A stretch of 64,000 nt of DNA, taken from NCBI GenBank assembly GCA_004376265.1, contig SOKL01000197.1, positions 1,678 to 65,677 of the forward strand. Reading direction: 5' to 3'. This stretch comes from Candidatus Thorarchaeota archaeon (GTDB taxonomy: Archaea > Asgardarchaeota > Thorarchaeia > Thorarchaeales > Thorarchaeaceae). Both the position numbers and the translations under genes were made by a program. The notes below the pieces were generated by a model. It was not told where the DNA came from and made no database searches. It worked only from the letters and a program-made list of their open reading frames with translations. This document shows positions 7,513-52,966 of the stretch, in pieces (positions within the stretch are counted from its first letter, which is position 1; each line of letters opens with the position of its first letter).

Positions 7513-8487
7513 ATGACGATTGCAATCCATGAGAGTGCTCTGATTCGTCACTTCAACACACGTAAGGAAGTTCTCAAGACTTGGGAAGAAAGGATTGGTG
7601 CTAGGTTCTCTCCTTTTCGTGGTTTCAAGATGCCAGATAGTCGTCTATACATAGAAGATAGTGACTTCCTTGATTCCATTGTTGACCTAATCATCACAAA
7701 TGAACGACATGTCTTCATCCGAGGTCCGGTGGGGTCCGGAAAGAGCACGTTAATGCTTTTAGCATTACGGGATTTGCCTACGCTAGCGGATCGCAGTGGT
7801 AACAAATTTGTCACTGGCTACGTAGGAATGACAGGTCTTTATGAGAAGCAAATGGCTTCGGCTATTGCTGACTCTCTCAGGATAAAATACAAGAGATCAT
7901 GGGAGTCAAGTCAGATTATCGATGCAGTTGCTAAGGAAAGTCTTCGAAGATATGTGGAAGAAAAGAGTCGGACTGCACTGTTCATTGAGGATGTTGCAGA
8001 TAATCAAGAGGCCGCCTTTCATAAACTAAGATTCCTTGCTGATTTGCCTACCGAGGAGATGATGGATGCATATACAGAAGCTCTTGATGAGCCTATTTTC
8101 ACTCTAGTGATGTCAGGGACCACGATGTATTGGAATGCAATGCTTTCATTCTTACCACAGATAGCTGATCGTACAGAGCCGCTTGATGTTCCACCGCTAA
8201 GCAATGCAAAAGCTAGAGAGTTCATAGGTCGTCGGATTGCATATGCACAAAACAAAATTGACGTCTTTGATCCAGAGAACTACAGTATCTACCCATTTTC
8301 GGATAGTGCTGTGGATGTCATTAATATTGCAACAAAAGGAAACCCTCGAGACATTCGAATGTTAGCACGTGGATGTCAACAAGTAGCAGCGGAGAATCTT
8401 AGGAATTCCGGAAATCCAGATGTGACTAAGGATATCGCTAAACTTGTTTCTGAAGCATACGCAACTTTACTCAGGGAGGTCCACTGA
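7513..8487 (+). CDS. AAA+ ATPase of the ORC/ExeA/TniB-like kind, unknown function
   Basis: Walker A GPVGSGKST, atypical Walker B ALFIEDV, and sensor-2-like GNPRDIRML. Confidence 0.6.
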   Translation: MTIAIHESALIRHFNTRKEVLKTWEERIGARFSPFRGFKMPDSRLYIEDSDFLDSIVDLIITNERHVFIRGPVGSGKSTLMLLALRDLPTLADRSGNKFVTGYVGMTGLYEKQMASAIADSLRIKYKRSWESSQIIDAVAKESLRRYVEEKSRTALFIEDVADNQEAAFHKLRFLADLPTEEMMDAYTEALDEPIFTLVMSGTTMYWNAMLSFLPQIADRTEPLDVPPLSNAKAREFIGRRIAYAQNKIDVFDPENYSIYPFSDSAVDVINIATKGNPRDIRMLARGCQQVAAENLRNSGNPDVTKDIAKLVSEAYATLLREVH

Positions 8488-18125: not shown

Positions 18126-18212
18126 TCACCGATCCTCCATGTTTGGATGTTTCGAGTGAGATTATGAGTAGTGTATCAGTCTTACGGTATTGAATGCGAC
18201 CCTATAATACTT

Positions 18213-18226
18213 GGAACACGTGTTCT
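18213..18226. promoter_or_regulatory. palindrome GGAACACGTGTTCT (copy 1)
   Basis: 12-bp perfect core GAACACGTGTTC, 88-101 nt upstream of the iorA start, followed towards iorA by TATTATAG. Confidence 0.6.
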
Positions 18227-18246
18227 AGTTAGTATTGCGCAGATAA

Positions 18247-18270
18247 GACCCCTTGACTTCCAGTAGAAAG
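18247..18270 (-). promoter_or_regulatory. ORB-like origin recognition box (left, G-run pointing left)
   Basis: Minus strand reads CTTTCTACTGGAAGTCAAGGGGTC: dyad TTTCTA-C-TGGAAG followed by a G-run. Confidence 0.5.
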
Positions 18271-18392
18271 ATCAAAATGAAGTGGCCATCAGCGAGCGTG
18301 TGTATATGCATTATAAAATGGAGATAAGTGACAGCTGTATAAATGATTATAAATACTTTTTGGTATTTAACCGGTTAGACATTTTTTAAATA
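18271..18392. other. candidate duplex-unwinding element between inverted ORB-like boxes
   Basis: 122 bp. Positions 18301-18392 are very AT-rich (tgtatatgcattataaaatgg...ataaatactttttggtatttaa...attttttaaata). Confidence 0.4.
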
Positions 18393-18416
18393 GTTTCTAG
18401 TGGAAGCAAGGGGGTT
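18393..18416 (+). promoter_or_regulatory. ORB-like origin recognition box (right, G-run pointing right)
   Basis: Plus strand reads GTTTCTAGTGGAAGCAAGGGGGTT, inverted relative to 18247-18270. Confidence 0.5.
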
Positions 18417-18427
18417 CAATTGGATTT

Positions 18428-18441
18428 GGAACACGTGTTCT
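18428..18441. promoter_or_regulatory. palindrome GGAACACGTGTTCT (copy 2)
   Basis: Part of the 20-nt ATTTGGAACACGTGTTCTAT, which is repeated exactly 62-63 bp downstream. Confidence 0.6.
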
Positions 18442-18468
18442 ATACTTCTTAGGATCCATTTCGCAACT

Positions 18469-18477
18469 TGTATTACA
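18469..18477. promoter_or_regulatory. TGTAWTACA palindrome
   Basis: TGTATTACA between palindrome copies 2 and 3. Confidence 0.35.
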
Positions 18478-18490
18478 AATAATAACATTT

Positions 18491-18504
18491 GGAACACGTG
18501 TTCT
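18491..18504. promoter_or_regulatory. palindrome GGAACACGTGTTCT (copy 3)
   Basis: Identical 20-nt context to copy 2. It overlaps the stop codon of ORF 18503..18949. Confidence 0.6.
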
Positions 18505-18949
18505 ATCGAATTTCCTGTACAACCTCATAGATCTTGAATTTTAGAATGTCTGCATACATATGAAAAAGTGCGTCGAACTCAAAACGATATTCAAAAGGAA
18601 CCAGTATAGCTGAATCAGCAACAGCCTCTGTACCGGGACATTCATCCATTAGACCTGGTTTTCGTTTCTGTTTGATTCCAGATTTTGTCTTCCAGGAATA
18701 TACATACCCATAGAGTTCCTTTGTAAAAGCAACTCGTCTTGCATTACTTTGTCTTGCATGTCGACAATCATAGAGATACAGATACGAAGTCAATTGAAAC
18801 AACCAAATTAAAGAACACGTGTTCTGATTTTGAGTGCTAGTAATACACCACCAAATACTTGGCCTGCACGGAAAAGTTAAAGGATAAGCAGCTTGGCCCT
18901 TGACATTGTCAACAAAATCTATCAGAAACTTGACTAGGGGGACAATCAA
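18503..18949 (-). CDS. doubtful ORF; only the C-terminal ~90 codons look protein-like
   Basis: The C-terminal part RVAFTKELYGYVYSWKTKSGIKQKRKPGLMDE..FEYRFEFDALFHMYADILKFKIYEVV is plausible. The N-terminal part is W/C/Y-rich and contains palindrome copy 4. No in-frame ATG follows that site, only TTG. Confidence 0.3.
   Translation of the reverse strand: MIVPLVKFLIDFVDNVKGQAAYPLTFPCRPSIWWCITSTQNQNTCSLIWLFQLTSYLYLYDCRHARQSNARRVAFTKELYGYVYSWKTKSGIKQKRKPGLMDECPGTEAVADSAILVPFEYRFEFDALFHMYADILKFKIYEVVQEIR
18812..18825. promoter_or_regulatory. palindrome AGAACACGTGTTCT (copy 4, perfect 14-mer)
   Basis: Read directly, 124-137 nt upstream of the LKR gene start at 18949. Confidence 0.55.
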
Positions 18950-20250
18950 TGAACCGGATTGGACTTAAGAAAGAAGAGAAAGCGTTTGAAACGCGGGTTC
19001 CAGTGGTGCCCGATCATGTCAAATTTCTACATGATAAACATGGCATTGAATTTCTACTTGAACCAAGCACTCAACGTGCTTTCACAGAAGACGAGTACCT
19101 CAATGCAAATGCTAGAATTTTGTCACTAAAGGGTAGTAATACATCAGTGGTTTTGGGAATCAAGGAGATGCCCATTGATTTCTTTGAAGAGAATATAGTT
19201 TACATATTCTTCAGTCACACTATCAAAGGACAGGATTACAATATGCCCATGCTCAAGCGAATAATGGACGTAGGAGCCACACTGATTGATTACGAACGTG
19301 TAATTGATGATAAGGGTCGAAGATTGATCTTTTTCGGAAACTGGGCTGGAATGGCTGGTATTTCGGATACATTTCGTATGCTCGGTGATCGTTTAGAATC
19401 ACAGGGTGTAAAACCCAATCCATTTGCTGATATGAAACCGACCTTTGAACTAGGAGGACTTTCAGAACTGAAGGAGGAATTCGCTGCTCTTGGTAGGCGT
19501 ATCAAAGAACAAGGACTTCCCGAAGAGCTCAAACCATTTGTTATCGGTTTTGCTGGTTATGGTAATGTATCAAAAGGTGCTCAAGAGATATTCGACATAC
19601 TTTCACATGAGGTCATTAATCCAGAAGAACTGGAACATATTCCTCCCAAATCAGACTTACTCTACAAATGTGTCTTCAAGGAAGAACATATGGTTGAACC
19701 CCGAAGCTCTTCTGAACAGTTCGACCTTCAAGACTACTACAAGAATGGAGCAGCAAAATACGTTGGTGTATTTCACAAACACGTTCCCTATCTTACCGTA
19801 TTAATGAATTGCATCTACTGGACAGAAAAGTATCCTAGATTGGTAACCAAGGAATTCATCAAGAATCATTGGAAACAAGAATCTCGAAGGCTCCAGATTG
19901 TGGGGGACATCTCTTGCGATGTTGAAGGTGCTATAGAATTCACCTTGGATTGTACAAAAGCAAACAAACCTGCATTCACATACATAATTAATGAGGATCG
20001 AGCCGAGATAGGTGTCGTAGGTGAAGGTCCAGTCGTGATGGCAGTTGACAATCTTCCAAGTGAGCTTCCACGCGAATCATCCACATCTTTCAGTGAAACA
20101 CTTCTTGACTTTATTCCTGCCTTAGCAAATGCAGATTTCACTGTTCAATTCTCCGAGCTTGAACTACCACGGGAGCTCAAAGATGCTGTAATTGTATATC
20201 AAGGTAAACTAACAGAAAACTATCAATATCTCAGTCAATATATTCCATAG
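18949..20250 (+). CDS. lysine-ketoglutarate reductase-type saccharopine dehydrogenase (L-lysine-forming; LKR domain homologue of eukaryotic AASS)
   Basis: Blocks that I recognise from the AASS LKR half: FFSHTIKGQDYNMPML, GNVSKGAQ, IYWTEKYPRLVT, GDISCDVEGAIEF, DNLPSELP and AVIVYQGKLTENYQYL. Confidence 0.8.
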   Translation: MNRIGLKKEEKAFETRVPVVPDHVKFLHDKHGIEFLLEPSTQRAFTEDEYLNANARILSLKGSNTSVVLGIKEMPIDFFEENIVYIFFSHTIKGQDYNMPMLKRIMDVGATLIDYERVIDDKGRRLIFFGNWAGMAGISDTFRMLGDRLESQGVKPNPFADMKPTFELGGLSELKEEFAALGRRIKEQGLPEELKPFVIGFAGYGNVSKGAQEIFDILSHEVINPEELEHIPPKSDLLYKCVFKEEHMVEPRSSSEQFDLQDYYKNGAAKYVGVFHKHVPYLTVLMNCIYWTEKYPRLVTKEFIKNHWKQESRRLQIVGDISCDVEGAIEFTLDCTKANKPAFTYIINEDRAEIGVVGEGPVVMAVDNLPSELPRESSTSFSETLLDFIPALANADFTVQFSELELPRELKDAVIVYQGKLTENYQYLSQYIP

Positions 20251-20261
20251 GAGGACAACGA

Positions 20262-21578
20262 ATGAAGAAAATACTATGTCTGGGTGCAGGTTTAGTAGCC
20301 CGCCCGTACATCCAATATCTATCAGACAATGATTTCCATGTCATTGTTGCTAGCCGTACAAAAAGTAAAGCTGATCGTCTAATTGAGGGATGCAATAATA
20401 CCGAAGCAGTGGCTTTCAATATTGCAGAAGATGATGAACTTCTTGAGGAGCTTACCAAAAAAGCTGACCTCGTTTGCTCTTTACTACCTTACACATATCA
20501 TGTGAAGGCAGCTAAAGTTGCTATAAAACACAAGACACACTTCTGCACTACATCATACATTTCAGATGAAATGAAGGCACTCGAAAGCGAAGCAAAGAAT
20601 GCTGGTATATTGCTCTTGAATGAATGCGGAGTTGACCCTGGAATCGATCATATGAGTGCAATGAAGATTATCGATGAAGTTCATAATAATAAAGGAAAGA
20701 TTGAAAGCTTCACCTCTTTTACGGGAGGTCTTCCGGCTCCTGATTCAAATAACAATCCTTACGGTTACAAATTGTCTTGGAGCCCACGGGGAGTGCTTCT
20801 TGCTGGCCGCAATGATGCACAATTCCTTCGTGATGGAAAAGAAGTCAAAATCCTTGGTTCTGATCTCTTTAGTAATTATGAACTCATGGAAATCCCTGGA
20901 ATGGGTACATTTGAAGGATATCCGAATCGTGATAGTCTCTCCTACATTAACATTTACGAAATATCAGAAACAAAGACAATGCTTCGTGGGACTTTCAGAA
21001 ATATAGGTTGGTGTGGCACATTAGACAAAATTGCAGACTTGGGTCTTCTAGATATAGAAGAACGATCTCTTGAGGAAATGACATATGCCGACCTCATGCG
21101 AGAACTAACATCAAGCAGTGATTCAGATGTAAAGACTGCAGTTGCGAAGGCTTGTGATATTGAATCTAATGATTCGATTATCGAACGTTTGGATTGGTTA
21201 GGCTTGTTTGAAGAAAAGCAGATTCCTTCAGGCACCAAAACAATCTTAGATGCCCTCTGTAATCTCTTTGAAGAAAAGATGCAGTATGCACCTGGAGAGC
21301 GCGATATGATTGTCATGCATCACGAATTCTTAGTACAATATCCAGACAAGAAACAGAAGATCACCTCTACTCTCATCGACTACGGTATTAAGAATGGAAA
21401 CAGTTCCATGTCAAGGACCGTGGCTCTTCCAGTTGCGATAGCCAGTAAGCTGATTCTAAATGGTGAGATTACCTTGACGGGAGTTCACAGACCCATAATA
21501 CCAGAGATCTATGAACTAATTCTCCAGGAACTGGAAACACTCGATATTAAGATGGACGAAAAAACATTTGATTTGTGA
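20262..21578 (+). CDS. saccharopine dehydrogenase (L-glutamate-forming; SDH domain homologue of AASS)
   Basis: Rossmann motif KILCLGAGLVARP, plus GVDPGIDHMSAMKIID, GGLPAP..NNPYGYKLSWSPRGVL, EGYPNRDS and GERDMIVM. Confidence 0.85.
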   Translation: MKKILCLGAGLVARPYIQYLSDNDFHVIVASRTKSKADRLIEGCNNTEAVAFNIAEDDELLEELTKKADLVCSLLPYTYHVKAAKVAIKHKTHFCTTSYISDEMKALESEAKNAGILLLNECGVDPGIDHMSAMKIIDEVHNNKGKIESFTSFTGGLPAPDSNNNPYGYKLSWSPRGVLLAGRNDAQFLRDGKEVKILGSDLFSNYELMEIPGMGTFEGYPNRDSLSYINIYEISETKTMLRGTFRNIGWCGTLDKIADLGLLDIEERSLEEMTYADLMRELTSSSDSDVKTAVAKACDIESNDSIIERLDWLGLFEEKQIPSGTKTILDALCNLFEEKMQYAPGERDMIVMHHEFLVQYPDKKQKITSTLIDYGIKNGNSSMSRTVALPVAIASKLILNGEITLTGVHRPIIPEIYELILQELETLDIKMDEKTFDL

Positions 21579-21622: not shown

Positions 21623-22249
21623 TCATTCCCCTACTCGCATCTGTATAGCAGCTAATAGTCCCTCGGCTCTCTCTGTTTCTTTCTGGACTTCTACAATTTC
21701 AGTCCTAAGTCGGTATGTATAACCAGAACGATTTCCATATCGTTCTAAATGACCTTTACCATTATTCCACATCCTAGCAAGGTATGTTGATGTAGTGCTC
21801 TTTGGTAGCTTTTCAGTGAATGAATCTTGATATATCTCAGTCACATCTAGTGAGGAGAACTTCCCATGTTTGAAGGATGCATAGATTATCACTTGCATCT
21901 TGTCGTAGTTACTCATTGACTCAAATCGAGTGTCTTCTATTCCAACTTCTGTAATCTCTTCGCTGACTGGTTCAAAGATATATCCAGTACTTGTTTCTAG
22001 GAAGACCTTGAACTTAACAAACATTTCTTCAATACTGCCACCTTTGACCTGAAAACTGGATTCTTCTCCCATCGTTTCATCTGATACAAGGATCTTGAAA
22101 TCAAATGGAGATTCAGTCAAAGCTAGTATTTTGCTGAACCTGTTAAGAGCCTCATCTGGTTTGACATACTTGCACTGAAAGATCTCGCGTAAGCCAGGAG
22201 CTGAGCTATAAGTGAATTCGTAGATATAATTAGTCCTGTCTTCTGTCAA
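21623..22249 (-). CDS. hypothetical protein with C-terminal winged-helix-like segment
   Basis: 208 aa. The C-terminus DVTEIYQDSFTEKLPKSTTSTYLARMWNNGKGHLERYGNRSGYTYRL fits helix-turn-helix plus wing. Confidence 0.45.
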   Translation of the reverse strand: MTEDRTNYIYEFTYSSAPGLREIFQCKYVKPDEALNRFSKILALTESPFDFKILVSDETMGEESSFQVKGGSIEEMFVKFKVFLETSTGYIFEPVSEEITEVGIEDTRFESMSNYDKMQVIIYASFKHGKFSSLDVTEIYQDSFTEKLPKSTTSTYLARMWNNGKGHLERYGNRSGYTYRLRTEIVEVQKETERAEGLLAAIQMRVGE

Positions 22250-22545
22250 ACCTTGTATCTCCTATACTTCTTTCTATTCACAATCAACTATATTCATTTC
22301 GCAAATAAGTGTGAGTATGTGAATTATCTATACCGAGATAAGAGCTACATAATGCGTCTGTACACATATGGGACTCGTCCACCCCGTATTTACTGTGCTG
22401 ACGTCTTGTTCAGTCTATTTGACCATAAAAAAGCATTATGAGCCCTTTTTTCGTCAATTTAACTGGATTCTCCATTCGTTTTCTTATTCACTAATCTATG
22501 GTCCTTGTGAATGAGCAAGTAAGCATTTCATATCTCTTCTTACCC

Positions 22546-22569
22546 GTTTCCAGTGGAAACGAAGGGGTG
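22546..22569 (+). promoter_or_regulatory. ORB-like box GTTTCCAGTGGAAACGAAGGGGTG
   Basis: Perfect dyad CGTTTCC-AGT-GGAAACG followed by GGGG. It matches 19 of 24 positions of the box at 18393-18416 and is closest to the textbook ORB layout. Confidence 0.5.
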
Positions 22570-22735
22570 TGCTTATTCACAGGCACCATAGCACATATCG
22601 TGCCTCCATTCCAGTTCTAAGGCGATAAGATGTTCCGTTTGTTACAGAGTGTTCACAATATTGGCGCCATTCACACAGATGTAGTGTGAATTAATGTAAA
22701 CATGAACAATATGTGAAATCAAAACACGTGTGTGA

Positions 22736-23785
22736 CTACTCCGTAGGGATTAGATAATCAGTGGAACGTTCACCTAGAACAAGCTGCATATACTGATCAT
22801 CATCTCTGTGGTCTGTGACCAATTCAAATCTTCCAAATGCTTCAAACTGAACGCCTGTTGAAACTTGTTCTGTGAATCTACCTCGATAGCTGATAAGCTT
22901 CTCAAGATTTGGTATACTAGTACATTCCACTTGGTATTCACAAGGTGTGAATATAGAATCATTACTGCCTAGCACTTTCCCAGATATTTTTTGATAACCT
23001 CTCATCTGATATGATAAATCACCATAAACATAATCGAGATCAGACTGAGTCTTTACTAACCTAATAAAGAAATGATAATCCCCTATCAAGCCCTGTAACA
23101 TCTTGTTTCTCTCTATTTCTATGAGAAGAGGATGCAAATCAGTATGTGCTTCCCATCTAAACAAAACATGATTCTCGAGTAGTTGCCCTGAATATCTCCT
23201 TACTTCAGGAATATTATCAATCTTCGTACAAATACCAGAGTAAAATTTTCGACACGCAGTTGATCCATAGATTACTAAGTCAATATCTGATTCCTTACCA
23301 GCTACACCTACAAGCTGAGAACCTGTAATTCCAATATTACTCCATTCAATCTCAGTTACTTCTACTAATTTTCTCGCGAGTACAACAGATTCCCTTTCTA
23401 GATGTGTGACCTCATCTGCTTCCCGCATTTGAGCTAAACGATCTACAGGGTCAAGAATTGATTCAATCTTCTCCTCTGAAACTGATTGCACAATCCTTCC
23501 ATGCGGTTCACTGTTCCATAAATACTCAGGGTATTTCTCTCTGAGGTATTTTTCACGCTCATCAAGATCGTACACTTTTTTGAATCCAGTACTCGATGAT
23601 TCTGATGGGACATAACGAAGGTATGCTATAATCCGATTTTCTGGGTGAACTACACCTTTTACCTCAAAGACAAGATTGTCAGAGGTTATGACAAAATATC
23701 CTTCTATAGGACTTTCAAGCACTGTAATCATAGCGGCCAATGTATAGCATGGTATTAAAGCCGCTTGTCTAATTATCCAAATCAT
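22736..23785 (-). CDS. predicted nucleotidyltransferase (Pol-beta-like NTase fold) with C-terminal OB-like domain
   Basis: Motif GITGSQLVGVAGKESDIDLVIYG (G-S...D-x-D). The start may be the ATG at 23731, since 23785 overlaps the divergent start at 23784. Confidence 0.5.
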   Translation of the reverse strand: MIWIIRQAALIPCYTLAAMITVLESPIEGYFVITSDNLVFEVKGVVHPENRIIAYLRYVPSESSSTGFKKVYDLDEREKYLREKYPEYLWNSEPHGRIVQSVSEEKIESILDPVDRLAQMREADEVTHLERESVVLARKLVEVTEIEWSNIGITGSQLVGVAGKESDIDLVIYGSTACRKFYSGICTKIDNIPEVRRYSGQLLENHVLFRWEAHTDLHPLLIEIERNKMLQGLIGDYHFFIRLVKTQSDLDYVYGDLSYQMRGYQKISGKVLGSNDSIFTPCEYQVECTSIPNLEKLISYRGRFTEQVSTGVQFEAFGRFELVTDHRDDDQYMQLVLGERSTDYLIPTE

Positions 23786-41156: not shown

Positions 41157-41233
41157 GCGACCGTGGTCTAGTCTGGTTAGGACTGAAGCTTCCCAAGCTT
41201 CCAAGCCGGGTTCAAATCCCGGTGGTCGCACCA
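41157..41233 (+). tRNA. tRNA-Gly (anticodon CCC), no intron, CCA encoded
   Basis: GCGACCG-TG-GTC..GAC-T-GAAGC-TTCCCAA-GCTTC-CAAG-CCGGG-TTCAAAT-CCCGG-TGGTCGC-A-CCA. Confidence 0.9.
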
Positions 41234-41444
41234 ATACTTTTCGTTAGATTTAAGGGAAGATAGACAATTATAATATTGGCGAGTGATGATTGCTATGACC
41301 CCAATGAGTCAGAAATGACGATGATATGGATCTTGAGTTAGGAGCTCGCCATTACTTTCGGCAACCTCCCCTTTGATTATCCATTTAAGCGTACACTCCG
41401 AAAATCCTTTTAAGGTGCATAAACAGAGCTGTTTCTCGACTGTC

Positions 41445-42662
41445 ATGCCTCACGACTATGTTGAAGATGAACTCAGTAGACGTAGCGTATTCAAATCAGA
41501 ACAGTTCTTATCTATCGACTATGTACCAGAGAGTCTTCCTCACAGACAAAATGAAATCAGGGCTCTTGTTCAGAGCTTTAAGACTTTAATCAGCTCCCCA
41601 GGTCAAACAAGCCACAAATTCATCATTGAAGGTCCTGTGGGAACTGGAAAGACTGCGGTTGTAAAACGCTTCTCTGAACAGATGATTCAAGCTGCAAAGA
41701 GGCGTAATATCAGGCTTCACAGTATTCACATTAACTGTCGTGTTAACAAGACAGCATACCTTGTATTCCTTCGAGCGTTAAGAGAATTCGTACCAAAATT
41801 TCCCAGACGTGGACATTCCCCTGATGAGCTTCTTCAAATGCTAGTTGAAGTCCTCGATGAAGAGGATCGATACCTCTTGTTGATTCTTGACGAACTTGAT
41901 TATTTCATCAAACAAAGAGGCGCTGACATACTCTATGACCTAACTAGGATAATGGATGATAGGTTGAATGCAACACAGCGTCTCTCAATCATCGGAATAG
42001 GTCGTGAAATTCCCCTTGATGAAAAAATTCTTGATGCTAGCACACTCAGTACACTCCAACGTAATGTTCTACGATTTTCAAGGTACAATCATGATGCACT
42101 TTCAGACATTCTACGAGACCGTGTAGATATGGCCTTTGAGAAAAAGACTGTTATGGATGAAACAATCCAAGTTATCTGTGATATTGCATCTGGGCATGGT
42201 GATGCACGCTATGCAATTGAGCTCCTATGGCGTGCTGGAAAAAGTGCTGATAGTGACCAAGCAAATGTTGTAATACCCGATTATGCACGTCGTGCTAAAG
42301 CTGACACTCATCCTGAGCTTAGAAAGGAGATTTTTGCATCACTGCCTATGCAACATCAACTTTTGTTGTTGGCAGTAGCAAGGCAACTTAGGGATATTCG
42401 TAGTGCGTATGTCACAATGGGCGAAGTTGAAGAAATGTATCGCTTAATATGTGAAGAATATTATGAAGAACCACGAGCACATACCCAGATTTGGGAATGG
42501 GTCCAAGATCTTCATTCTCATGGGATAATAGATGCAAAGAAATCAAGCACAGGTCAGAGAGGTCAGACTACTCTAATCGGGTTCTCTGATGTTCCAGCTG
42601 AGATGTTAGAACAGTTCCTCTCAGGGTTACTCGATACCTCCAAGGAGGTTGTGAGAAAATAG
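41445..42662 (+). CDS. orc1: Orc1/Cdc6 replication initiator
   Basis: The start is set at MPHDYVEDEL... YVPESLPHRQNEI, Walker A GPVGTGKT, Walker B LLILDELD and the sensor GDARYAIELL are present, with a C-terminal winged helix. Confidence 0.9.
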   Translation: MPHDYVEDELSRRSVFKSEQFLSIDYVPESLPHRQNEIRALVQSFKTLISSPGQTSHKFIIEGPVGTGKTAVVKRFSEQMIQAAKRRNIRLHSIHINCRVNKTAYLVFLRALREFVPKFPRRGHSPDELLQMLVEVLDEEDRYLLLILDELDYFIKQRGADILYDLTRIMDDRLNATQRLSIIGIGREIPLDEKILDASTLSTLQRNVLRFSRYNHDALSDILRDRVDMAFEKKTVMDETIQVICDIASGHGDARYAIELLWRAGKSADSDQANVVIPDYARRAKADTHPELRKEIFASLPMQHQLLLLAVARQLRDIRSAYVTMGEVEEMYRLICEEYYEEPRAHTQIWEWVQDLHSHGIIDAKKSSTGQRGQTTLIGFSDVPAEMLEQFLSGLLDTSKEVVRK

Positions 42663-42956
42663 ATGGACGATGAAAGCTCATCTAAAGTTGCCATTGAGGA
42701 TATATTCTCATCAAGAGGCAGAATCAAGATACTCAAGACACTAGCTGGAGCTGATCATAGTGAGCTACCTATCTCTGAGCTCTGTAGAAAAGTGAACCTC
42801 AACCACAGTTCAACAAAATCACATCTTAAAGTGTTGATCAGATCTGGCCTAATTGAAGAGAAGACATATGGATCAAGAATCAAAATCTACCGATACAAGA
42901 TCGAAGACCTAAGAGCACGGTCTCTCCGGAGTCTGTTCAATTTATGGGACTCATAA
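42663..42956 (+). CDS. ArsR-like winged-helix protein, translationally abutting orc1
   Basis: The ATG immediately follows the orc1 TAG. GRIKILKTLAGADHSELPISELCRKVNLNHSSTKSHLKVLIRSGLIEEK. Confidence 0.65.
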   Translation: MDDESSSKVAIEDIFSSRGRIKILKTLAGADHSELPISELCRKVNLNHSSTKSHLKVLIRSGLIEEKTYGSRIKIYRYKIEDLRARSLRSLFNLWDS

Positions 42957-42971
42957 TGGGGGTTTCGTGAT

Positions 42972-43835
42972 ATGACGGACTATTTAGCGCGTCTGTTCTA
43001 TCTTGGCGACCTATATTATGGTTCACAATACCAACTTGGTTTCGATACTGTTCAAGGAAAACTAATTGATGCTTTAAACAGTTGGACCGGTGAAACACAT
43101 TCACCCCAAACAGTTCAACTTTCAGGAAGAACCGACCGAGGCGTTCACAGCATTGGACAACTAGTAATGCTGACTACGAGTAAACCAATTGACGTTGATA
43201 AGATAAACAAACACCTTCCAGAAGATATTCAATTGTGGGCGTCTGTAAAAGCTCCCGTTGACTTCAAACCCCGATACAGTGTATTGATGCGCCATTATAG
43301 ATACTATCTAACTGAATTTTGGAATGATGTTGATTCTACGCTGGTCAAGAAAGCTATTAACATTCTGATTGGTTCTAATGATTTCAGTCACTTATCAAAA
43401 CCAGACGCAGGGCGTAACACTCTAACCACGATTCTAAATATATCCCTCCAAGATGCTCATGAAGTATTCTTTCTAGATTTCTTCGGAACTCGTTTTCTTT
43501 GGAAATTAGTAAGGAAGATTGTTACTCTACTTACTGATGTAGGAAGAGGAAAAATCGGACTTGATGTAATCAATGACATACTTTCTGGACGCATTAGAAT
43601 TCCCAATGGAATCCGACCAGCTCCCCCAGAGAACCTAATTCTGATTGAAACTGCAATTCCGTTCAAACTAAAGATCAGTAAATACGCCATTCGGAGGATT
43701 ATGGCTCATCTACACGAAAGATTCGAGTACCATAAGCATTCAACAAAGACCCTAAGAAATGTCATCGATTTCTTTTCCGAACCAAGGCTGACTTTTCGAC
43801 CCTCAACCAAGCGGCGAAATTCTTCAGAACCTTAG
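42972..43835 (+). CDS. truA: tRNA pseudouridine synthase A (TruA/Pus1 family)
   Basis: YLGDLYYGSQYQ and the catalytic GRTDRGVHSIGQ. Confidence 0.85.
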   Translation: MTDYLARLFYLGDLYYGSQYQLGFDTVQGKLIDALNSWTGETHSPQTVQLSGRTDRGVHSIGQLVMLTTSKPIDVDKINKHLPEDIQLWASVKAPVDFKPRYSVLMRHYRYYLTEFWNDVDSTLVKKAINILIGSNDFSHLSKPDAGRNTLTTILNISLQDAHEVFFLDFFGTRFLWKLVRKIVTLLTDVGRGKIGLDVINDILSGRIRIPNGIRPAPPENLILIETAIPFKLKISKYAIRRIMAHLHERFEYHKHSTKTLRNVIDFFSEPRLTFRPSTKRRNSSEP

Positions 43836-44976
43836 GATTAATCTCGATAATCTTTTGAATGGTGTCTAGATGGGTCTGTTGAACACGTCTTTTTGATACT
43901 CCTGTAAGAGAAGCAAGAGAAGATCGGACTTTAGATTGTTTGTCCCGCTTTCTGTTACCCTGCCAAACAAGTAAGGGCCATGTCGGCTGAGAATATACAA
44001 CTCTTCGAAAAGGGGTTTTAGTCCTGCTCATTGCTACTCCTGTTGCAAAGAAATCATAGACATAAGCAAGAAGTTTCCAATTCTGGTTTCTCATGATTCT
44101 ACCTAGCGATACATCAGCAAGAGAAAGTCCTTCAAATCCATCGTTCAGCTCTTTTGGGGTTAGAAGATGAAGATGAAGATTTTCTTCAAGCCATAAGATC
44201 AGCGAGTCGTGGGGAAGTTCTGATTCAGATAGTATTCTCCTTGCCATCTTAGAATCATTTGTAGCAAATAGATGCCTCAAAGTTTCTTCTGTCCCTCTTC
44301 GAATATCTCTAGATGTTGTAATAGTTTGCGATGATGAACCACCTCGTACCTGTGACTCCAAGTCCGAAACTGCTGCTCTAAGGTCTCCTTCTGCATTCTC
44401 GATAATCTCTTCAAGAATATCTTCAGACACATTTTCTTGGTTCTCTGATAGAATATACCTCAATACAGTTGTCATATCATCGCTTTCAATTAATCCAAAA
44501 TTGAAGACTTGGCACACCTTCAATAAGTCTTTGAGTCGGGGACTATTAGGATCATTTGCGGTCATTACAATTGGATGTACGGCATCTCTGATTACTTTCA
44601 GGATTGCACCTACTCCCCCTCTGTCACTAGTACCTGAAAGACCATCAACCTCATCTAGGAGTATGATCCTATCTCGTCCATCTAGAGTCATTTGGGACGC
44701 AGCTCGCCACACTAAAGTTTCGATACTATCCTTATTCCTCTTATCGCTGGAATTAAACTCAACTAATTCCATATCCAAATCATTTGAGATTGCGCCTACT
44801 GATGCAGTTTTTCCTGTTCCAGGAGGACCAATTAGAAGGGCTGCGCTCTTACTTGGTTTTCCTAACATCCATGAATCAATCCAAGCCTTTAATGCCTTGA
44901 TTGTTTCGGGATTTCCTACTAGCTCACTGAGACTTTTAGGACGATGCTTCTCAGACCAAGGTAGATTATCATTCAA
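43762..44976 (-). CDS. rfcL: replication factor C large subunit
   Basis: LPWSEKHRPKSL and GPPGTGKTA. The start is taken as TTG 44976 (alternatively GTG 44985), overlapping the rfcS stop. The longer track ORF is an artefact. Confidence 0.8.
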   Translation of the reverse strand: MNDNLPWSEKHRPKSLSELVGNPETIKALKAWIDSWMLGKPSKSAALLIGPPGTGKTASVGAISNDLDMELVEFNSSDKRNKDSIETLVWRAASQMTLDGRDRIILLDEVDGLSGTSDRGGVGAILKVIRDAVHPIVMTANDPNSPRLKDLLKVCQVFNFGLIESDDMTTVLRYILSENQENVSEDILEEIIENAEGDLRAAVSDLESQVRGGSSSQTITTSRDIRRGTEETLRHLFATNDSKMARRILSESELPHDSLILWLEENLHLHLLTPKELNDGFEGLSLADVSLGRIMRNQNWKLLAYVYDFFATGVAMSRTKTPFRRVVYSQPTWPLLVWQGNRKRDKQSKVRSSLASLTGVSKRRVQQTHLDTIQKIIEINPKVLKNFAAWLRVEKSALVRKRNR

Positions 44977-45997
44977 CAGAATCACTACCAGTTCCAATAC
45001 GTGCCAGAAGTGATGCCAACTGAATTTCTCCATTTGCACCCTCACCCACACGAAACTCAATCTCTGCTGTATGTTCCAAAATGACCATCCTTTTGTGAGG
45101 TTCAAGACCGAGACTATCAACTTCACGATGCATCTGTTTCACTAGGTCAATAGGTGAAACACCTTGCCGGTAAATAAGATCTCTAAGACTATCGAGAGAA
45201 TCGACATATCGACCCTTATGTGCATCAATCAGCATCTGTCGTACACTCTCAGGATTTGCTCTCCCTGAAATTGAATACACAACTTCATCTGTCACTTTTT
45301 CCCCTGTAGATGATGCAGCCTGAAGGAGGTTTAGTGCCGCTCTCATATCACCTTCCGTAAGATATAGAATAGCCTCGATACCTGTTGGTGCAAGATCAAC
45401 ATTCTCTTTCTTTGCAACAAACTTGAGCCTACCTGAAATATCATCTTCACTTAGTTTTGAGAAACGGAAAATAGCACATCTTGATTGAATTGGAGGAATA
45501 ATCCTACTCGAATAGTTACAGATTAACACCATTCTACATGAGGCTGCGTACGATTCCATGGTTCGTCGAAGAGCATGCTGTGCGTCCGATGTAAGATGAT
45601 CGGCTTCATCAAGAACTAGTATCTTGAACGGTGCGTTTCCTGAAGGCATTGTTCGTGCAAAATTCTTAATTTGATTTCTCACAACGTCTATTCCTCTTTC
45701 GTCACTGGCGTTAAGTTCCATGAAGTTTCGTTCAAAGGAATCACCAAAGAAGTCTCTCGCCATTGCCATTGCCGCTGTAGTTTTACTAGTCCCTGGTGGT
45801 CCTGTAAAAAGACAGTGTGGCACCACCTTATTCTCAACGAATTTCTTCAAGCTGTCAATCACTGATTCTTGACCAATGATTCCACTCAATGAAGGTGGTC
45901 GGTATTTTTCAGTCCATAAATCCAGATCCATTGAAGTTCCTTCCATATCTTGTAGATGTTTCAGTTTTACAGCCAGAATCTGCTTCGACTCTTTCAT
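44969..45997 (-). CDS. rfcS: replication factor C small subunit
   Basis: LWTEKYRPPSL, GPPGTSKTT, LDEADHLT and the SRC motif QSRCAIFRF. No intein. Confidence 0.9.
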   Translation of the reverse strand: MKESKQILAVKLKHLQDMEGTSMDLDLWTEKYRPPSLSGIIGQESVIDSLKKFVENKVVPHCLFTGPPGTSKTTAAMAMARDFFGDSFERNFMELNASDERGIDVVRNQIKNFARTMPSGNAPFKILVLDEADHLTSDAQHALRRTMESYAASCRMVLICNYSSRIIPPIQSRCAIFRFSKLSEDDISGRLKFVAKKENVDLAPTGIEAILYLTEGDMRAALNLLQAASSTGEKVTDEVVYSISGRANPESVRQMLIDAHKGRYVDSLDSLRDLIYRQGVSPIDLVKQMHREVDSLGLEPHKRMVILEHTAEIEFRVGEGANGEIQLASLLARIGTGSDSVE

Positions 45998-46106
45998 GAC
46001 ACCTTAAAAGATTCTCTGACCAATCCGATATAATCTAAATGCTGATTTAATCACTATGTTTCGTTATCAAAGAGCAAGGGCTTTATCTCCGATAACATAG
46101 AATAAA

Positions 46107-46676
46107 GTGTGGGAAGTCATGAAGCTGTGCAGTGAAGCAAAAGATGTGATGAAGCAATTTGATATGCTATTTCTCAATGAGATTCGGGAATGTATTTTCC
46201 AGAAATCTCTCCCTGAGATAAATGTGAATGGGAAGAAATTAGGTCCCTTCAATAAAGATGACAGAGCAAATCTGCCTAATTGGGTGATTGAGCGACTTCT
46301 AAATCGCGGAATAGTTGATCTTTCTCCAGAAGATGCGTATGACTCTGTACGACGTCTTCAGAACCTATATCGTGAAGAAGAGAAACAACCACACAAATTG
46401 CAGACGTTTCAACCATTTCTTTACACAGCTTTTGGGAGGAAGTTAATTCGTCTACAAAGTGATAAGACATCTATAGACCCACGAAAATATGAAGAAATCG
46501 AGAAACTACAGCGCATGGTTCCATTTCTGGTCGAAACCAGATTATCGAAGATTCTCCGTGTTGCGAAATCAGGGGGGTATCAAGAAAAACGAAAACTGAT
46601 GGCTTATGAAGAGCGTTGGCTGTGTGAGGAACTAATCGATCTCTTGTCTGGATGGCGCCAAAACATCTTGAAATAG
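46107..46676 (+). CDS. GINS complex subunit (Gins23-like position upstream of mcm)
   Basis: About 185 aa and helical. LPNWVIERLLNRGIVDL and RLSKILRVAK resemble Psf/Sld5 A-domain blocks. Its position next to mcm matches Sulfolobus. Confidence 0.55.
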   Translation: MWEVMKLCSEAKDVMKQFDMLFLNEIRECIFQKSLPEINVNGKKLGPFNKDDRANLPNWVIERLLNRGIVDLSPEDAYDSVRRLQNLYREEEKQPHKLQTFQPFLYTAFGRKLIRLQSDKTSIDPRKYEEIEKLQRMVPFLVETRLSKILRVAKSGGYQEKRKLMAYEERWLCEELIDLLSGWRQNILK

Positions 46677-46738
46677 GCTGTGAGTATTAGTGTCCTTAAA
46701 TACAAATCCCGAAGAACTAAAAATCGAATACAGAAAGA

Positions 46739-48826: not shown

Positions 48827-48849
48827 ACACGACACTAGTAATAATCTCG

Positions 48850-51107: not shown

Positions 51108-52154
51108 TTAAAATAAAGGAGAATCTTGAACAACTCTCTCAATCAGTTCTTCTGTGTATTGTGTGCATGTTTCGCTCTCAGTGTGGCTATCATCAAACAC
51201 TGAAACTTCTAATCCTGACAATTCTTGAAGGAGGTTCAGAGAGCACATACCCATCACTTCAAGATTATACCCACCTTCCAAAAAACAGGTTATTTTTCCA
51301 TCTGTGTACGATTTAGCCAGTTGGTTCAATCGTGAGTTCATCATCGCAAAACCTGAGGTTGTGAGACCAAGTGAAGTCAACGGGTCTTTGAAATGTCCAT
51401 CATATCCTACTGAAACAAGTATGAATTCGGGTTTATATGACTCAAAGAGGGGATCCAGCACACCGTCAAATACGAGTTCATAGGAAACATCCCCTGCACC
51501 CGGGTACATTGCAAGATTGACAGTATACCCCTTTCCAACACCTTCGCCGATTTCATCTGGAAATCCTGAACCTGGGAAGAGTGATCTTCCATCTTGATGT
51601 AGTCCCATATATAGTACATTGTTAGATGAATAGAATGTACTCTGTGTACCATTTCCATGATGTGCATCATAATCAACTATCATGATCCGTTGCATATTAT
51701 ACTCGTTCAATAGATGTTCTGCAGCTACTGCTATATTGTTGATAAAACAAAATCCAAAGGCTCGTTTGTATTCAGCGTGATGTCCCGGAGGTCTACATAA
51801 TACAAATGCATTGTTCGAATCGCTATGCATAATTCTATCTACAGCCTCAATTCCACCTCCTGCAGCTAGAAGTGCTGCATCATAGGTGTGTGCATTGACT
51901 GCTGTATCCATTGTATAGAAGCCACCCCCTTTCTCTGATTTCTCTCTTATGCCTTCCAAGTAAGTCTCATCATGAATTGGATATATCTTATCCAACGAAG
52001 CTTTCTGGGGTGTTAGGAGATTCACCTGTAGACTTTCTAAAAGACCTGCGGTTGTAAAGGACTTCATAGCACTTCTCAACCGGTCTGGATTTTCCGGATG
52101 TCCTGGAGACATTACATGTTCAACAAATTCATCATGATATACCAAATCGGTCAT
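51108..52154 (-). CDS. histone deacetylase-family amidohydrolase (AcuC/acetylpolyamine deacetylase-like)
   Basis: RPPGHHA, DYDAHHGNGTQ and GGY motifs. Confidence 0.8.
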   Translation of the reverse strand: MTDLVYHDEFVEHVMSPGHPENPDRLRSAMKSFTTAGLLESLQVNLLTPQKASLDKIYPIHDETYLEGIREKSEKGGGFYTMDTAVNAHTYDAALLAAGGGIEAVDRIMHSDSNNAFVLCRPPGHHAEYKRAFGFCFINNIAVAAEHLLNEYNMQRIMIVDYDAHHGNGTQSTFYSSNNVLYMGLHQDGRSLFPGSGFPDEIGEGVGKGYTVNLAMYPGAGDVSYELVFDGVLDPLFESYKPEFILVSVGYDGHFKDPLTSLGLTTSGFAMMNSRLNQLAKSYTDGKITCFLEGGYNLEVMGMCSLNLLQELSGLEVSVFDDSHTESETCTQYTEELIERVVQDSPLF

Positions 52155-52222: not shown

Positions 52223-52236
52223 GGAACACGCGTTCT
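52223..52236. promoter_or_regulatory. palindrome variant GGAACACGCGTTCT (copy 5)
   Basis: Flanks TTGGAACACGcGTTCTAA match copies 1-3 with one substitution. It lies 69-82 nt upstream of the deacetylase start at 52154. Confidence 0.5.
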
Positions 52237-52396: not shown

Positions 52397-52966
52397 TTAT
52401 TGAATATTCCACAATATGTCATAAACTGGTCCAGTGGGCATCAAGGTGCTTTTCATCATGTTGAAACCTGAAATGGTCATAGAACCTATTGTTTCGTTGG
52501 CAATCTCTTCAAGATTATCAACAATCTTTCCAGAATCTTTGACATGTCGTACTCGCGCTATTGTTGCATGAGGAGTATATTTTCTTCTCTCAGGCAGATA
52601 ACCAATGTCATTCAGCAACGAATCAATTTCAAGCTTCAAATCTTGAACTTGTTGTCCATTATTGGTCACGCCAATCCAAACAACTCTCGGTCTTCGATTG
52701 TTAGGGAAAGCTCCCACTCCAGCAATTACTATTTCAAAAGGTTCAATCTCAATCTTTTCGAGTTGATCCCTGATTTGATTGATTCTTGTGATTGGAGTAT
52801 CACCGAAGAATCGTAATGTGAAATGAATGTTATTAATCTCCACAAGTTTCATTTTAGCAGCTTGTGGGTCTAGCCTTTGCTGGACTTGTGACACGCGGGA
52901 CAATAACGCTTGATCATCGATATCGATGCTTAGAAAAGCTCTGACAAGGTTATTCACACTTACCAT
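52397..52966 (-). CDS. thpR: RNA 2',3'-cyclic phosphodiesterase (2H family, LigT/ThpR)
   Basis: Two H-x-T/S-x motifs: HFTLRF and HATIAR. Confidence 0.85.
   Translation of the reverse strand: MVSVNNLVRAFLSIDIDDQALLSRVSQVQQRLDPQAAKMKLVEINNIHFTLRFFGDTPITRINQIRDQLEKIEIEPFEIVIAGVGAFPNNRRPRVVWIGVTNNGQQVQDLKLEIDSLLNDIGYLPERRKYTPHATIARVRHVKDSGKIVDNLEEIANETIGSMTISGFNMMKSTLMPTGPVYDILWNIQ

Follow-up and report, generated by a model that had tools for sequence, protein, structure and literature searches.

Archaeal chromosomal origins related to the locus described here have been studied in several groups. In Sulfolobus and Saccharolobus, oriC1 includes an ORB3-DUE-ORB2 unit whose origin recognition boxes (ORBs) are bound by Orc1-1, while an internal motif, ucm, is bound by the protein UBP (PMC12141716). 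In S. islandicus this unit is 130 bp long with its C-run/G-run on the outer sides, and both ORBs, which read TCTCCAATGGAACCGAAGGGGTGTC, have been proven genetically to be essential (Dhanaraju et al. 2025, PMC12141716; the G-string polarity used in our comparison was taken from the linker-scan primers). In Haloarcula hispanica oriC1, a G-rich inverted-repeat enhancer located next to the ORBs modulates origin efficiency (PMC3936714). Pyrococcus has a second conserved ORB cluster, in dp1, a few kb from the main pair and bound by Cdc6/Orc1 in vivo (PMC1904270). Finally, an ORB(-)/DUE/ORB(+) arrangement without a neighbouring initiator gene has been described as the oriC of Hyperthermus butylicus (Ori-Finder-Arch preprint, 10.64898/2026.08.15.744077).

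In the literature that we searched, the placing of Asgard origins relied solely on genome-wide GC skew or on bulk automatic prediction, and no description at the level of ORBs was found. No known group is more closely related to eukaryotes than the Asgard archaea. Here we establish the sequence architecture of a short non-coding locus in a Thorarchaeota (hereafter Thor) contig, its conservation, the class of the corresponding initiator and a switch in strand composition at its position. The window, that is the whole stretch of DNA analysed, is 64,000 nucleotides long. A sequence-only reading had proposed a candidate replication origin at this position. The proposal is supported by our analysis, which found every sequence-level property expected of an archaeal ORB(-)/DUE/ORB(+) origin, and we consider it highly likely that this is a chromosomal origin of replication, of the classic archaeal oriC1 type and conserved throughout the Thorarchaeota. 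The features are listed in Table 1.

Table 1. Features of the putative origin, its surroundings and the replication gene cluster (positions within the window).
Feature	Position	Strand	Description
PAL1	18213-18226		GGAACACGTGTTCT, core GAACACGTGTTC; outer side of ORB-L, just upstream of the iorA promoter region
ORB-L	18247-18270	-	Box CTTTCTACTGGAAGTCAAGGGGTC; dyad TTTCTACTGGAAG then G-string GGGG pointing left (outward)
Core	18271-18392		Putative duplex unwinding element; 122 bp, right 90 bp 76.7% AT
Core motif AAAATGGAGATAAG	18315-18328		Conserved, fixed position
Core motif TTATAAATACTTTTT	18347-18361		BRE/TATA-like; conserved, fixed position
ORB-R	18393-18416	+	Box GTTTCTAGTGGAAGCAAGGGGGTT; dyad TTTCTAGTGGAAG then G-string GGGGG pointing right (outward)
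PAL2	18428-18441		GGAACACGTGTTCT; begins 14 bp past the ORB-R G-string
AT-rich motif GTATTACAAATAATAAC	18470-18486		Precedes PAL3
PAL3	18491-18504		GGAACACGTGTTCT; overlaps the stop codon of the p96 gene
p96	18503-18793	-	Thorarchaeota-specific 96-aa basic protein, pI 8.9; flanked by palindromes
PAL4	18812-18825		AGAACACGTGTTCT; 12-nt core 18813-18824
p208	21623-22249	-	Thor-specific, strongly conserved 208-aa protein adjoining module B; 59-95% identity
Module B	22250-22735		Distal, highly conserved non-coding block; contains ORB3
22-nt inverted repeat	22496-22517 and 22570-22591		Encloses ORB3
ORB3	22546-22569	+	Canonical ORB GTTTCCAGTGGAAACGAAGGGGTG, 4.1 kb from the ORB pair
Orc1/Cdc6	41445-42662	+	Orc1-1 class, presumed ORB binder; 23 kb from the putative origin, head of the replication gene cluster
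RFC-L	43762-45126		Replication gene cluster
RFC-S	44969-45997		Replication gene cluster
GINS	46107-46676		Replication gene cluster
MCM	46739-48826		Replication gene cluster
Hel308-like helicase	48850-51102		Replication gene cluster

Each box of the central pair is made up of a dyad (TTCCAnTGGAAA) and, after it, an asymmetric G-string, and matches the ORBs of P. furiosus and S. islandicus. For ORB-L, 41 copies give the consensus ttTCcAgTGGAAAtnAAGGGGTg; 117 Thor sites taken together give ttTCcAnTGGAAAcnaaGGGGTg. The box sequences and coordinates given in the sequence-only reading were all found where it had placed them, as was the inverted arrangement of the two boxes, with outward-pointing G-runs enclosing 122 bp. 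Its comparison with known archaeal origins also stood: both the sequence and the outward polarity of the G-strings match S. islandicus oriC1. The boxes are not dispersed repeats, with only three matches to the ORB pattern in the 64-kb window (0.02 expected). The AT-richness claimed for the right-hand part of the core is borne out, since positions 18303-18392 exceed the 59.1% AT of the window by a wide enough margin that only 30 of 63,909 90-bp windows (the top 0.05%) match them. The inverted ORB pair lies around this putative AT-rich unwinding element with its G-strings distal. The 823-bp gap described between iorA and LKR does contain the ORB pair; it is not empty, however, as it also includes the gene for p96.

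The likeness to Sulfolobus oriC1 is extensive: the ORB sequence is nearly identical, the boxes are inverted with G-strings outside, and the AT-rich unit between them is about 120–130 bp long in both. Both also have a short conserved motif within the DUE, a third ORB outside the pair and an initiator of the Orc1-1 class. There are just two ORBs at the Thor site itself, which falls short of the structure-only rule of Ori-Finder-Arch (at least three ORBs per intergenic region).

The ORB(-)/core/ORB(+) unit was found in all 40 Thorarchaeota loci covering the site, and dyad-to-dyad spacing is 117–126 bp across about 40 Thorarchaeota species. The flanking LKR protein is merely 60–81% identical across these loci, yet the ORB pair is kept in every one. 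No ORB pair occurs in 39 control loci from outside the group, which yielded one stray single ORB-like match. Five lineages (L018, L021, L023, L034 and L035) carry the unit in reverse orientation with respect to its flanks. In L076 it has been relocated along with iorA and p96, all as one block, and LKR is separated from it. Because of these flips and this relocation, the unit is not a promoter dedicated to any single adjacent gene.

The core contains two motifs which lie at fixed offsets across the Thor loci. Neither ucm (ATTATACAAAAG) nor the form (A)TTATACAAA(A/C)G has a match in the Thor origin region; the core has its own motifs, one of which shares just the hexamer TTATAC with the Sulfolobus motif. 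WhiP-type inverted repeats (TACTACTACTAC) are absent from the putative origin and occur at chance level elsewhere in the window. Both absences, like the small number of ORBs at the site, count against an origin. A motif common to the core and module B, GAGATAAG, was considered and set aside, as it is not enriched in the window. The strong block conservation of the core and a short open frame of 23 codons starting at a conserved ATGGAG (ATG at 18318) would be in keeping with a small structured RNA or a micro-peptide, the inverted boxes then forming a flanking stem. We regard this as scarcely credible: Rfam, applied to 18–23 kb, gives no match at gathering scores or even at E ≤1, RNAalifold recovers pairing between the ORBs alone with a covariation term of -0.21, and the conservation takes the form of short blocks and variable spacers without codon periodicity. 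The TATA-like core motif counts against an origin, since it could belong to a promoter.

The palindromes were described as an additional symmetric class of sites, and this description is upheld by their conservation: at least two copies are present in 39 of 41 loci. A palindrome does lie on the outer side of each box (PAL1 and PAL2), PAL3 is likewise confirmed, and there is a fourth copy, PAL4, in addition. The 12-mer GAACACGTGTTC occurs exactly four times in the window, all within 612 bp, against an expectation of about 0.004 for a 12-mer in 64 kb. In 38 of 41 loci, a palindrome with at most one mismatch is located within 150 bp of the left ORB on its outer side, the exact distance varying from 32 to 99 bp. 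On the other side, the distance from ORB-R is 33–34 bp in 25 of the 41. PAL3 is found in closer relatives only, and in L076 PAL4 stays with p96, not with LKR. A literature search with the 12-mer returned three unrelated papers only (on Src kinase, the S. aureus SOS response and paxillin turnover), none of them archaeal or concerned with replication origins. Palindrome pairs were not found in viral contigs. In metagenomes they occur at 44 loci, 11 of which are Thor origin loci; the remainder, uninformative here, are tandem satellites of no relation to them, which repeat every 33, 42 or 52 bp and come from organisms with another GC content.

The positions of PAL1 and PAL4 are those expected for operators of iorA and p96, an observation that counts against an origin. 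The core of PAL4 precedes the p96 start codon by 19 bp and the LKR ATG by about 125 bp, and PAL1 abuts an AT-rich element upstream of iorA. Together with the BRE/TATA-like motif, this raises the question of whether the locus is a complex divergent promoter in which the palindromes are operators for iorAB, p96 and LKR-SDH, genes of amino-acid catabolism, and an Orc1-type transcription regulator comparable to Sulfolobus Orc1-2 occupies the ORB-like boxes; Orc1 paralogues can indeed regulate transcription (PMC12490963). Such a promoter appears very unlikely. The unit is flipped in five lineages with the flanking genes unchanged and parted from LKR in L076, PAL2 and PAL3 come after p96, a location that calls for no promoter, and PAL2 keeps its fixed distance of 33–34 bp from ORB-R. 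Moreover, the boxes carry the G-string of Orc1-1-type sites, the sole Orc1 of the window is of this class, and transcriptional control leaves the strand-skew switch described below unexplained.

No equivalent of the bracketing palindromes has been described for Sulfolobus. H. hispanica oriC1 is similar in having inverted ORBs around an AT-rich region, apparently with outward G-strings (as judged from mutation sequences and text), and an extra class of symmetric repeats beside each ORB. These repeats, however, are G-rich, lie inside the ORB pair and are halves of one inverted repeat, whereas each Thor palindrome is itself a 12–18-bp palindrome located outside the pair, in three to four copies which also flank a small gene. 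Dimeric factors acting on origin-proximal palindromes are known from bacterial parS/ParB (TGTTNCACGTGAAACA) and from the EBV oriP DS/EBNA1 system. Both parS and the oriP DS sites are 16–18-bp palindromes with a CACGTG-type centre, present as a few clustered copies at or near the origin, and the DNA-binding domains of EBNA1 and papillomavirus E2 are small alpha/beta folds which dimerise on such sites. The Thor half-site differs from parS, and neither a ParB nor an EBNA1 homologue was found, the Pfam annotations of the window genes including no ParB domain.

The product of the small gene flanked by the palindromes, p96, is a candidate palindrome-binding factor. It was recovered in 39 loci by tblastn with 45–84% identity, invariably accompanies the ORB pair and moved with it in L076. 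Its 180 homologues are all unnamed or hypothetical, every one with a named source comes from Thorarchaeota MAGs, and just 15 clusters match among 1.84 billion representatives. No match was obtained in Pfam, NCBIfam or PHROGs, nor in the PDB by sequence or profile search; a comparison with BFVD gave nothing meaningful, and Sulfolobus UBP is absent from the top matches. The AF2 model of p96 (pLDDT 92.5) has as its best fold match in the PDB (Foldseek) the Cas2 protein 5h1o, a weak resemblance (E 0.05, TM about 0.5). Membership of the Cas2 family was considered and rejected: there is no Pfam or NCBIfam match, neither a cas gene nor an array was seen nearby, and the likeness in fold is weak.

As the sequence-only reading had stated, the window contains a single Orc1/Cdc6 gene. 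Searched against the PDB, its product is most similar to 1FNN (2e-55), Sso Orc1-1 (1e-45) and Ape ORC1 (2e-34), with Orc1-3 at 6e-19, and it scores above the NCBIfam cut-off for the ORC1 type, so that an Orc1-1-class initiator accompanies the ORBs in this genome. A second candidate, a 324-aa ATPase (7513-8487), is a generic P-loop protein. In contrast to the Sulfolobus origin, which adjoins orc1, the Thor origin is not linked to its initiator gene, as had been noted: they are 23 kb apart and 40 of 41 related loci are without an Orc1 gene within 10 kb. Adjacency is typical, not obligatory, and H. butylicus provides a precedent for its absence, albeit in another phylum and with no palindrome class reported.

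This distance and the presence of merely two ORBs are also what might be expected if these were genuine Orc1 sites in a locus that is not an active origin, such as a dormant or relic origin, an initiator-titration site or a regulatory site. ORB clusters outside origins occur downstream of Haloarcula oriC2 (PMC3936714) and in Pyrococcus dp1 (PMC1904270), and dormant origins are known in haloarchaea (PMC4595724). We nevertheless judge an inactive locus of this kind to be unlikely, in view of the full ORB(-)/AT-rich/ORB(+) geometry, whose spacing is held within ±4 bp throughout the class, and of a skew switch at this position, which 27 of 28 species retain and which in L076 goes with the ORB pair.

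A strand-skew inflection, looked for near 18.3 kb, is present at the locus. Over 81 kb and 67 genes, the orientation-corrected GC3 skew changes sign with a best fit at 10.9–19.6 kb, a fit unmatched by any of 1000 gene permutations (p<0.001); a model with two switches fitted no better than one with a single switch. Of 28 species, 27 share the sign of the GC3 skew. In L076, the ORB pair has the block LKR-SDH-p208-p349-AT5 on its other side, and each of these five genes shows inverted skew, with values that are extreme or near-extreme among 34–40 species. It follows from this inversion that the skew depends on which side of the ORB pair a gene lies, not on which gene it is. The conservation of the switch and its behaviour in L076 indicate that forks diverge or converge here over evolutionary time. 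The orientation of the genes around it, which does not run along with divergent forks, counts against an origin.

The polarity of the skew is opposite to the bacterial rule, the leading strand of an origin at this position being C-rich at third positions. Since GC skew passes here from positive to negative, as at bacterial termini, and cumulative GC skew, like GC3 skew, peaks locally, a replication terminus or zone of fork convergence comparable to a dif region has to be considered; polarity by itself would fit convergence equally well. It is not decisive, because a local maximum of third-position cumulative skew, of the same polarity, has been reported at an archaeal origin, Haloferax volcanii Ori3. 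Canonical inverted ORBs with an AT-rich core mark origins, not termini, inspection of the core by eye revealed no convincing dif-like 11-6-11 inverted repeat, and a replication gene cluster lies nearby. A terminus thus seems highly improbable.

The third ORB of the window differs from its Sulfolobus counterpart in lying 4.1 kb from the pair, within a conserved box array of its own. This array, module B, carries at least eight ATTCACA/TGTGAAT boxes and an invariant GGCGCCATTCACA, and ORB3 occupies an equal relative position in 35 loci. The dp1 cluster of Pyrococcus is a precedent for such a distal ORB; the Pyrococcus clusters, however, flank cdc6 and consist of ORBs and mini-ORBs only, whereas module B has a single ORB among ATTCACA boxes. 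The adjoining gene product, p208, whose C-terminal half is basic and gives a weak hint of a winged helix, is a possible candidate for binding these boxes. Its AF2 model is poor (pLDDT 54) and unsuitable for structure search.

We infer Orc1 binding, MCM loading and firing at this locus, as well as all function of the palindromes, along the following lines. One monomer of the Orc1-1-class initiator would bind each ORB, contacting the dyad through its winged helix and the G-string through its AAA+ domain, and the two monomers would face opposite ways because the ORBs are inverted. In its ATP-bound form, Orc1 would recruit MCM onto the AT-rich core of about 122 bp, which would then melt and allow two forks to depart in opposite directions. 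The core motifs AAAATGGAGATAAG and TATWTATACTTTT are probably bound by an accessory factor analogous to, and not the same as, the ucm/UBP system of Sulfolobus. The palindromes bracketing the ORBs could be sites for a dimeric protein, for which p96 is the first candidate; modulation or insulation of the origin may be its role, along with autoregulation of p96. More speculatively, Thor origins might possess a second, lineage-specific layer of specification, in which a dimeric palindrome factor (possibly p96) licenses, insulates or tethers the origin, much as EBNA1 does at oriP or ParB at parS, and the ORB3/ATTCACA module with p208 forms a second initiator-like or regulatory complex; we consider this possible, though rather doubtful.

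This short non-coding stretch is very probably a site at which copying of the chromosome starts in a Thor (Asgard) archaeon. It provides a precisely mapped putative origin, with two predicted Orc1 sites, their spacing and internal motifs, conserved in all sampled Thorarchaeota loci, and might be of use as a marker when Thorarchaeota assemblies are oriented or checked and when growth rates are estimated from coverage. Because a defined DNA and the genes for Orc1 and MCM lie on one contig, origin recognition and MCM loading in an Asgard archaeon become directly testable in vitro. Comparison of the predicted sites shows a core of Orc1 and ORBs that is essentially unchanged between Sulfolobus and the Thorarchaeota, surrounded in the latter by new conserved elements of putative accessory function: palindromes, core motifs and a distal box array. 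The two orphan protein families which accompany these elements, p96 and p208, may reflect lineage-specific control of origin firing. If a second layer of specification does exist, the archaeal lineage nearest to eukaryotes would have a composite origin, in which the universal Orc1/ORB core is combined with accessory site-specific factors.

Three lines of evidence support the interpretation of the region between iorA and LKR as a replication origin: the architecture of the sequence, its deep conservation and a strand-asymmetry switch tied to position. On these grounds it is very likely to be an oriC1-type origin conserved across Thorarchaeota. The sequences quoted in the sequence-only reading all occur in the window where that reading had placed them. 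The origin recognition box (ORB) pattern TTTCTASTGGAAGNNAAGGGG, with up to 3 mismatches, has three matches in 64 kb against 0.02 expected: two are the boxes already proposed (ORB-L and ORB-R), and the remaining one, ORB3, has the canonical sequence GTTTCCAGTGGAAACGAAGGGGTG. AT content is 69.7% in the 122-bp core between the paired boxes and 76.7% in its right-hand 90 bp, compared to 59.1% for the window, and just 0.05% of the 90-bp windows are as AT-rich as this right-hand stretch. Two points of the earlier description required correction: the supposed 823-bp gap holds a real 96-aa gene (p96), with protein-level conservation in 39 related loci, and there are four palindromes (PAL1-PAL4), not three.

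Features of the probable origin locus, the distal module and the replication gene cluster
Feature	Position	Strand	Remark
tRNA genes (two)	473-591; 700-806	minus	
iorB and iorA	iorA start 18125	minus	
Motif GTATCAGTCTTACGGTA	18172-18188		
PAL1	18213-18226		core at 18214
ORB-L	18247-18270	minus	
ORB-R	18393-18416	plus	
PAL2	18428-18441		core at 18429
GTAWTACAAnTAATAC	18470-18486; ~18838-18846		AT-rich
PAL3	18491-18504		core at 18492
p96	18503-18793	minus	
PAL4	18812-18825		core at 18813
AlaDh/PNT-type LKR	18949-20250	plus	
Saccharopine dehydrogenase (SDH)	20262-21578	plus	
p208	21623-22249	minus	adjoins module B; no family above threshold
Module B	22250-22735		non-coding
ORB3	22546-22569		
p349	22736-23785	minus	flanks module B; no family above threshold
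Class-V aminotransferase (AT5)			among genes surrounding the origin locus
tRNA-Gly	41157-41233		just upstream of orc1
Compact replication cluster	41373-51102		Orc1/Cdc6 at head, pseudouridine synthase, RFC-L, RFC-S, GINS (Sld5-like), MCM, Hel308-like helicase
Orc1/Cdc6	41445-42662		
Histone-deacetylase-family gene	51108-52154	minus	
Palindrome-like site GAACACGCGTTC	52224-52235		one mismatch
LigT-like gene	52397-52966	minus	

The flanking genes have their close relatives exclusively in Thorarchaeota MAGs (Asgard archaea). The two tRNA genes, each longer than 100 nt, were detected by Rfam only, ARAGORN having missed both; they presumably contain introns, which points to an archaeon. Every Thorarchaeota locus carries, 50-65 bp ahead of the iorA start, the motif GTATCAGTCTTACGGTA (consensus TATCA..TTGTGGTA), which hardly varies and probably marks where iorA transcription begins, its 5' leader or a site for a regulator.

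LKR-centred loci from Thorarchaeota (41 loci, with LKR proteins 60-81% identical to that of the window) were scanned alongside 39 non-Thorarchaeota control loci. The inverted ORB pair is present in all 40 Thorarchaeota loci covering the upstream region, the window included, with a dyad-to-dyad distance of 117-126 bp; the controls yielded no pair and one stray single match. Alignments of the Thorarchaeota loci also revealed core motifs at fixed offsets, AATGGAGAT at ~+47 and TATWTATAYTT at ~+78. The ORB-core-ORB unit is flipped relative to the flanking genes in five lineages (loci L018, L021, L023, L034 and L035), and in another related locus, L076, the entire block iorA-PAL-ORB pair-PAL-p96-PAL has been relocated away from LKR. 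These rearrangements point to a self-contained module, functional in either orientation, and the unit does not behave as a promoter of one particular neighbour. RNAalifold gave just trivial ORB-ORB pairing for the unit, with no covariation, and an Rfam search of the locus gave no match. L076 (JAGSHN010000004.1, 1-21296) carries the iorA-origin-p96 block across from the LKR-AT5 block, with Orc1 ~15 kb off, while L023 (7966-9563) has a ~1.4-kb insertion between origin and p96.

The arrangement closely resembles that of proven origins. Firing of S. islandicus oriC1 depends on a 130-bp ORB3-DUE-ORB2 unit, in which each ORB is individually essential and mutations in the DUE are tolerated except in ucm, an internal motif bound by UBP (PMC12141716). 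The top strand derived from the linker-scan primers of that study (GACACCCCTTCGGTTCCATTGGAGA ... DUE ... TCTCCAAATGAAAATACTGGGGT) places the C-run and G-run on the outer sides, the same polarity as at the Thorarchaeota locus, and the Thorarchaeota ORB consensus (117 sites), ttTCcAnTGGAAAcnaaGGGGTg, is almost identical to the Sulfolobus box TCCAATGGAACCGAAGGGGTG. Haloarcula oriC1 apparently has the same outward G-strings, judging from the mutation sequences quoted in PMC3936714, where G-strings are described as recognised by the Orc1 AAA+ domain. ORB(-)/DUE/ORB(+) is now taken as the minimal archaeal origin pattern (10.64898/2026.08.15.744077).

Because gene orientation is the dominant influence on GC skew in archaea (PMC12999951), the regression of third-codon GC skew combined orientation with a positional switch and used 67 genes in 81 kb (the window and its flanks). 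The best-fitting switch lies at 10.9-19.6 kb and cuts residual variance by 34-37%. None of 1000 gene permutations equalled the observed fit, which deteriorates steeply beyond 19.6 kb on the right-hand side, and a two-switch model fitted no better than one switch. When fixed at the ORB pair, the switch has the same sign in 27 of 28 species (mean -0.10); pooled ortholog means place it between iorA and LKR. In L076, the LKR-SDH-p208-p349-AT5 block is situated on the opposite side of the ORB pair. Among 34-40 species, its three plus-strand genes rank first in coding-strand GC3 skew (positive, versus negative elsewhere) and its two minus-strand genes rank within the bottom three, whereas iorA and iorB, unchanged relative to the ORB pair, fall within the normal range. 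Skew therefore depends on which side of the ORB pair a gene occupies, not on the gene itself. The leading strand is C-rich at third positions, the reverse of the bacterial rule; at H. volcanii Ori3, a local maximum of third-position skew has been reported at the origin. Taken alone, the switch shows only that forks either diverge or converge at the locus; the ORBs argue for divergence over convergence. As the switch point, the skew analysis favours the ORB pair over ORB3.

The sole Orc1/Cdc6 of the window is of the Orc1-1 class: it exceeds the NCBIfam ORC1-type cut-off and matches 1FNN (2e-55), Sso Orc1-1 (1e-45) and Ape ORC1 (2e-34) in the PDB, versus 6e-19 for Orc1-3. No ORB was found beside this gene, and 40 of the 41 related loci have no Orc1 less than 10 kb from the origin. 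The earlier suggestion of an origin without initiator linkage is thus borne out at the scale of gene adjacency: the origin is not adjacent to the initiator gene, yet belongs to the same chromosomal neighbourhood. Hyperthermus butylicus is cited as an earlier case in which no initiator gene adjoins the origin (10.64898/2026.08.15.744077).

The palindrome core GAACACGTGTTC (extended sequence TTRGAACACGTGTTCYAA) occurs exactly four times in the window, all at the locus. At least two copies are present in 39/41 loci, and 38/41 have a copy on the outer side of each ORB; the distance from ORB-R is 33-34 bp in 25/41, so that the palindrome starts ~14 bp past the G-string. Exact copies elsewhere are rare, although some relatives have a few additional sites, and no description of the 12-mer was found in the searchable literature. 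In metagenomes, 11 of 44 closely spaced pairs come from Thorarchaeota origin loci and the others from unrelated satellites. The palindromes are inferred to bind a putative dimeric factor that would act next to Orc1, with p96 as first candidate. They might instead be ordinary operators for iorA and p96, which suits PAL1 and PAL4 but neither PAL2 nor PAL3. The PAL4 core precedes the p96 start codon by 19 bp, and in L076 PAL4 keeps company with p96, not LKR. p96 is basic (pI 8.9), with a conserved lysine-rich beta-hairpin and a predicted ferredoxin-like fold (pLDDT 92.5) weakly resembling Cas2. Its homologues are annotated as hypothetical protein in many Thorarchaeota MAGs, and the family comprises just 15 clusters among 1.84 billion representatives.

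Several further observations concern the palindromes. The window's only one-mismatch site outside the origin, GAACACGCGTTC, lies between the histone-deacetylase-family and LigT-like genes. The satellite contigs with GAACACGTGTTC (L095/L109/L121, L098/L099/L104/L110, L108 and L118) carry long tandem arrays with periods of 33, 42 and 51-52 bp, from unrelated organisms (GC 36-58%) with no apparent Thorarchaeota link. GTAWTACAAnTAATAC recurs beside palindromes at variable distance in many species, near PAL1/PAL2 in relatives; it looks like a BRE/TATA-type promoter element, although the one preceding PAL3 would read antisense to p96. Four related loci (L003, L007, L009, L012) have extra mini-ORBs without G-string (GTTCCAGTGGAAA) just right of PAL2; one is joined to the PAL2 right half (GAACACGTGTTCCAGTGGAAA), which shows that a palindrome may overlap an Orc1 site.

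Module B is conserved even above the origin itself (~34 Thorarchaeota species). It contains ORB3, placed between the two copies of an inverted repeat of 22 nt, along with at least eight ATTCACA/TGTGAAT boxes (9 of the window's 32 ATTCACA copies crowd into 680 bp), the nearly invariant CAAATAAGTGTGAGTATGTGAATTA and the invariant GGCGCCATTCACA. Such short conserved blocks with variable spacers give it the look of a dense protein-binding array. p208 is Thorarchaeota-specific (59-95% identity across the class) and in closer relatives exceeds the surrounding metabolic genes in conservation (up to 95% identity); its N-terminal half is acidic and its C-terminal half basic with a faint winged-helix signal. 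For p349, a weak match to a nucleotidyltransferase motif falls below the cut-off (Pfam NTP_transf_2, E 0.0017). By analogy with the second ORB cluster of Pyrococcus (PMC1904270) and the ORB-rich region of Haloarcula oriC2 (PMC3936714), module B may serve in regulation or titration; alternatively, it could belong to an origin region of larger extent.

In the searchable literature, no Asgard origin was found to have been described at the level of its ORBs. The Orc1/ORB core of the Thorarchaeota origin is classical; what is new is that no initiator gene adjoins it, that palindromes bracket it, and that it has its own core motifs, a distal ORB/box module and two orphan proteins.
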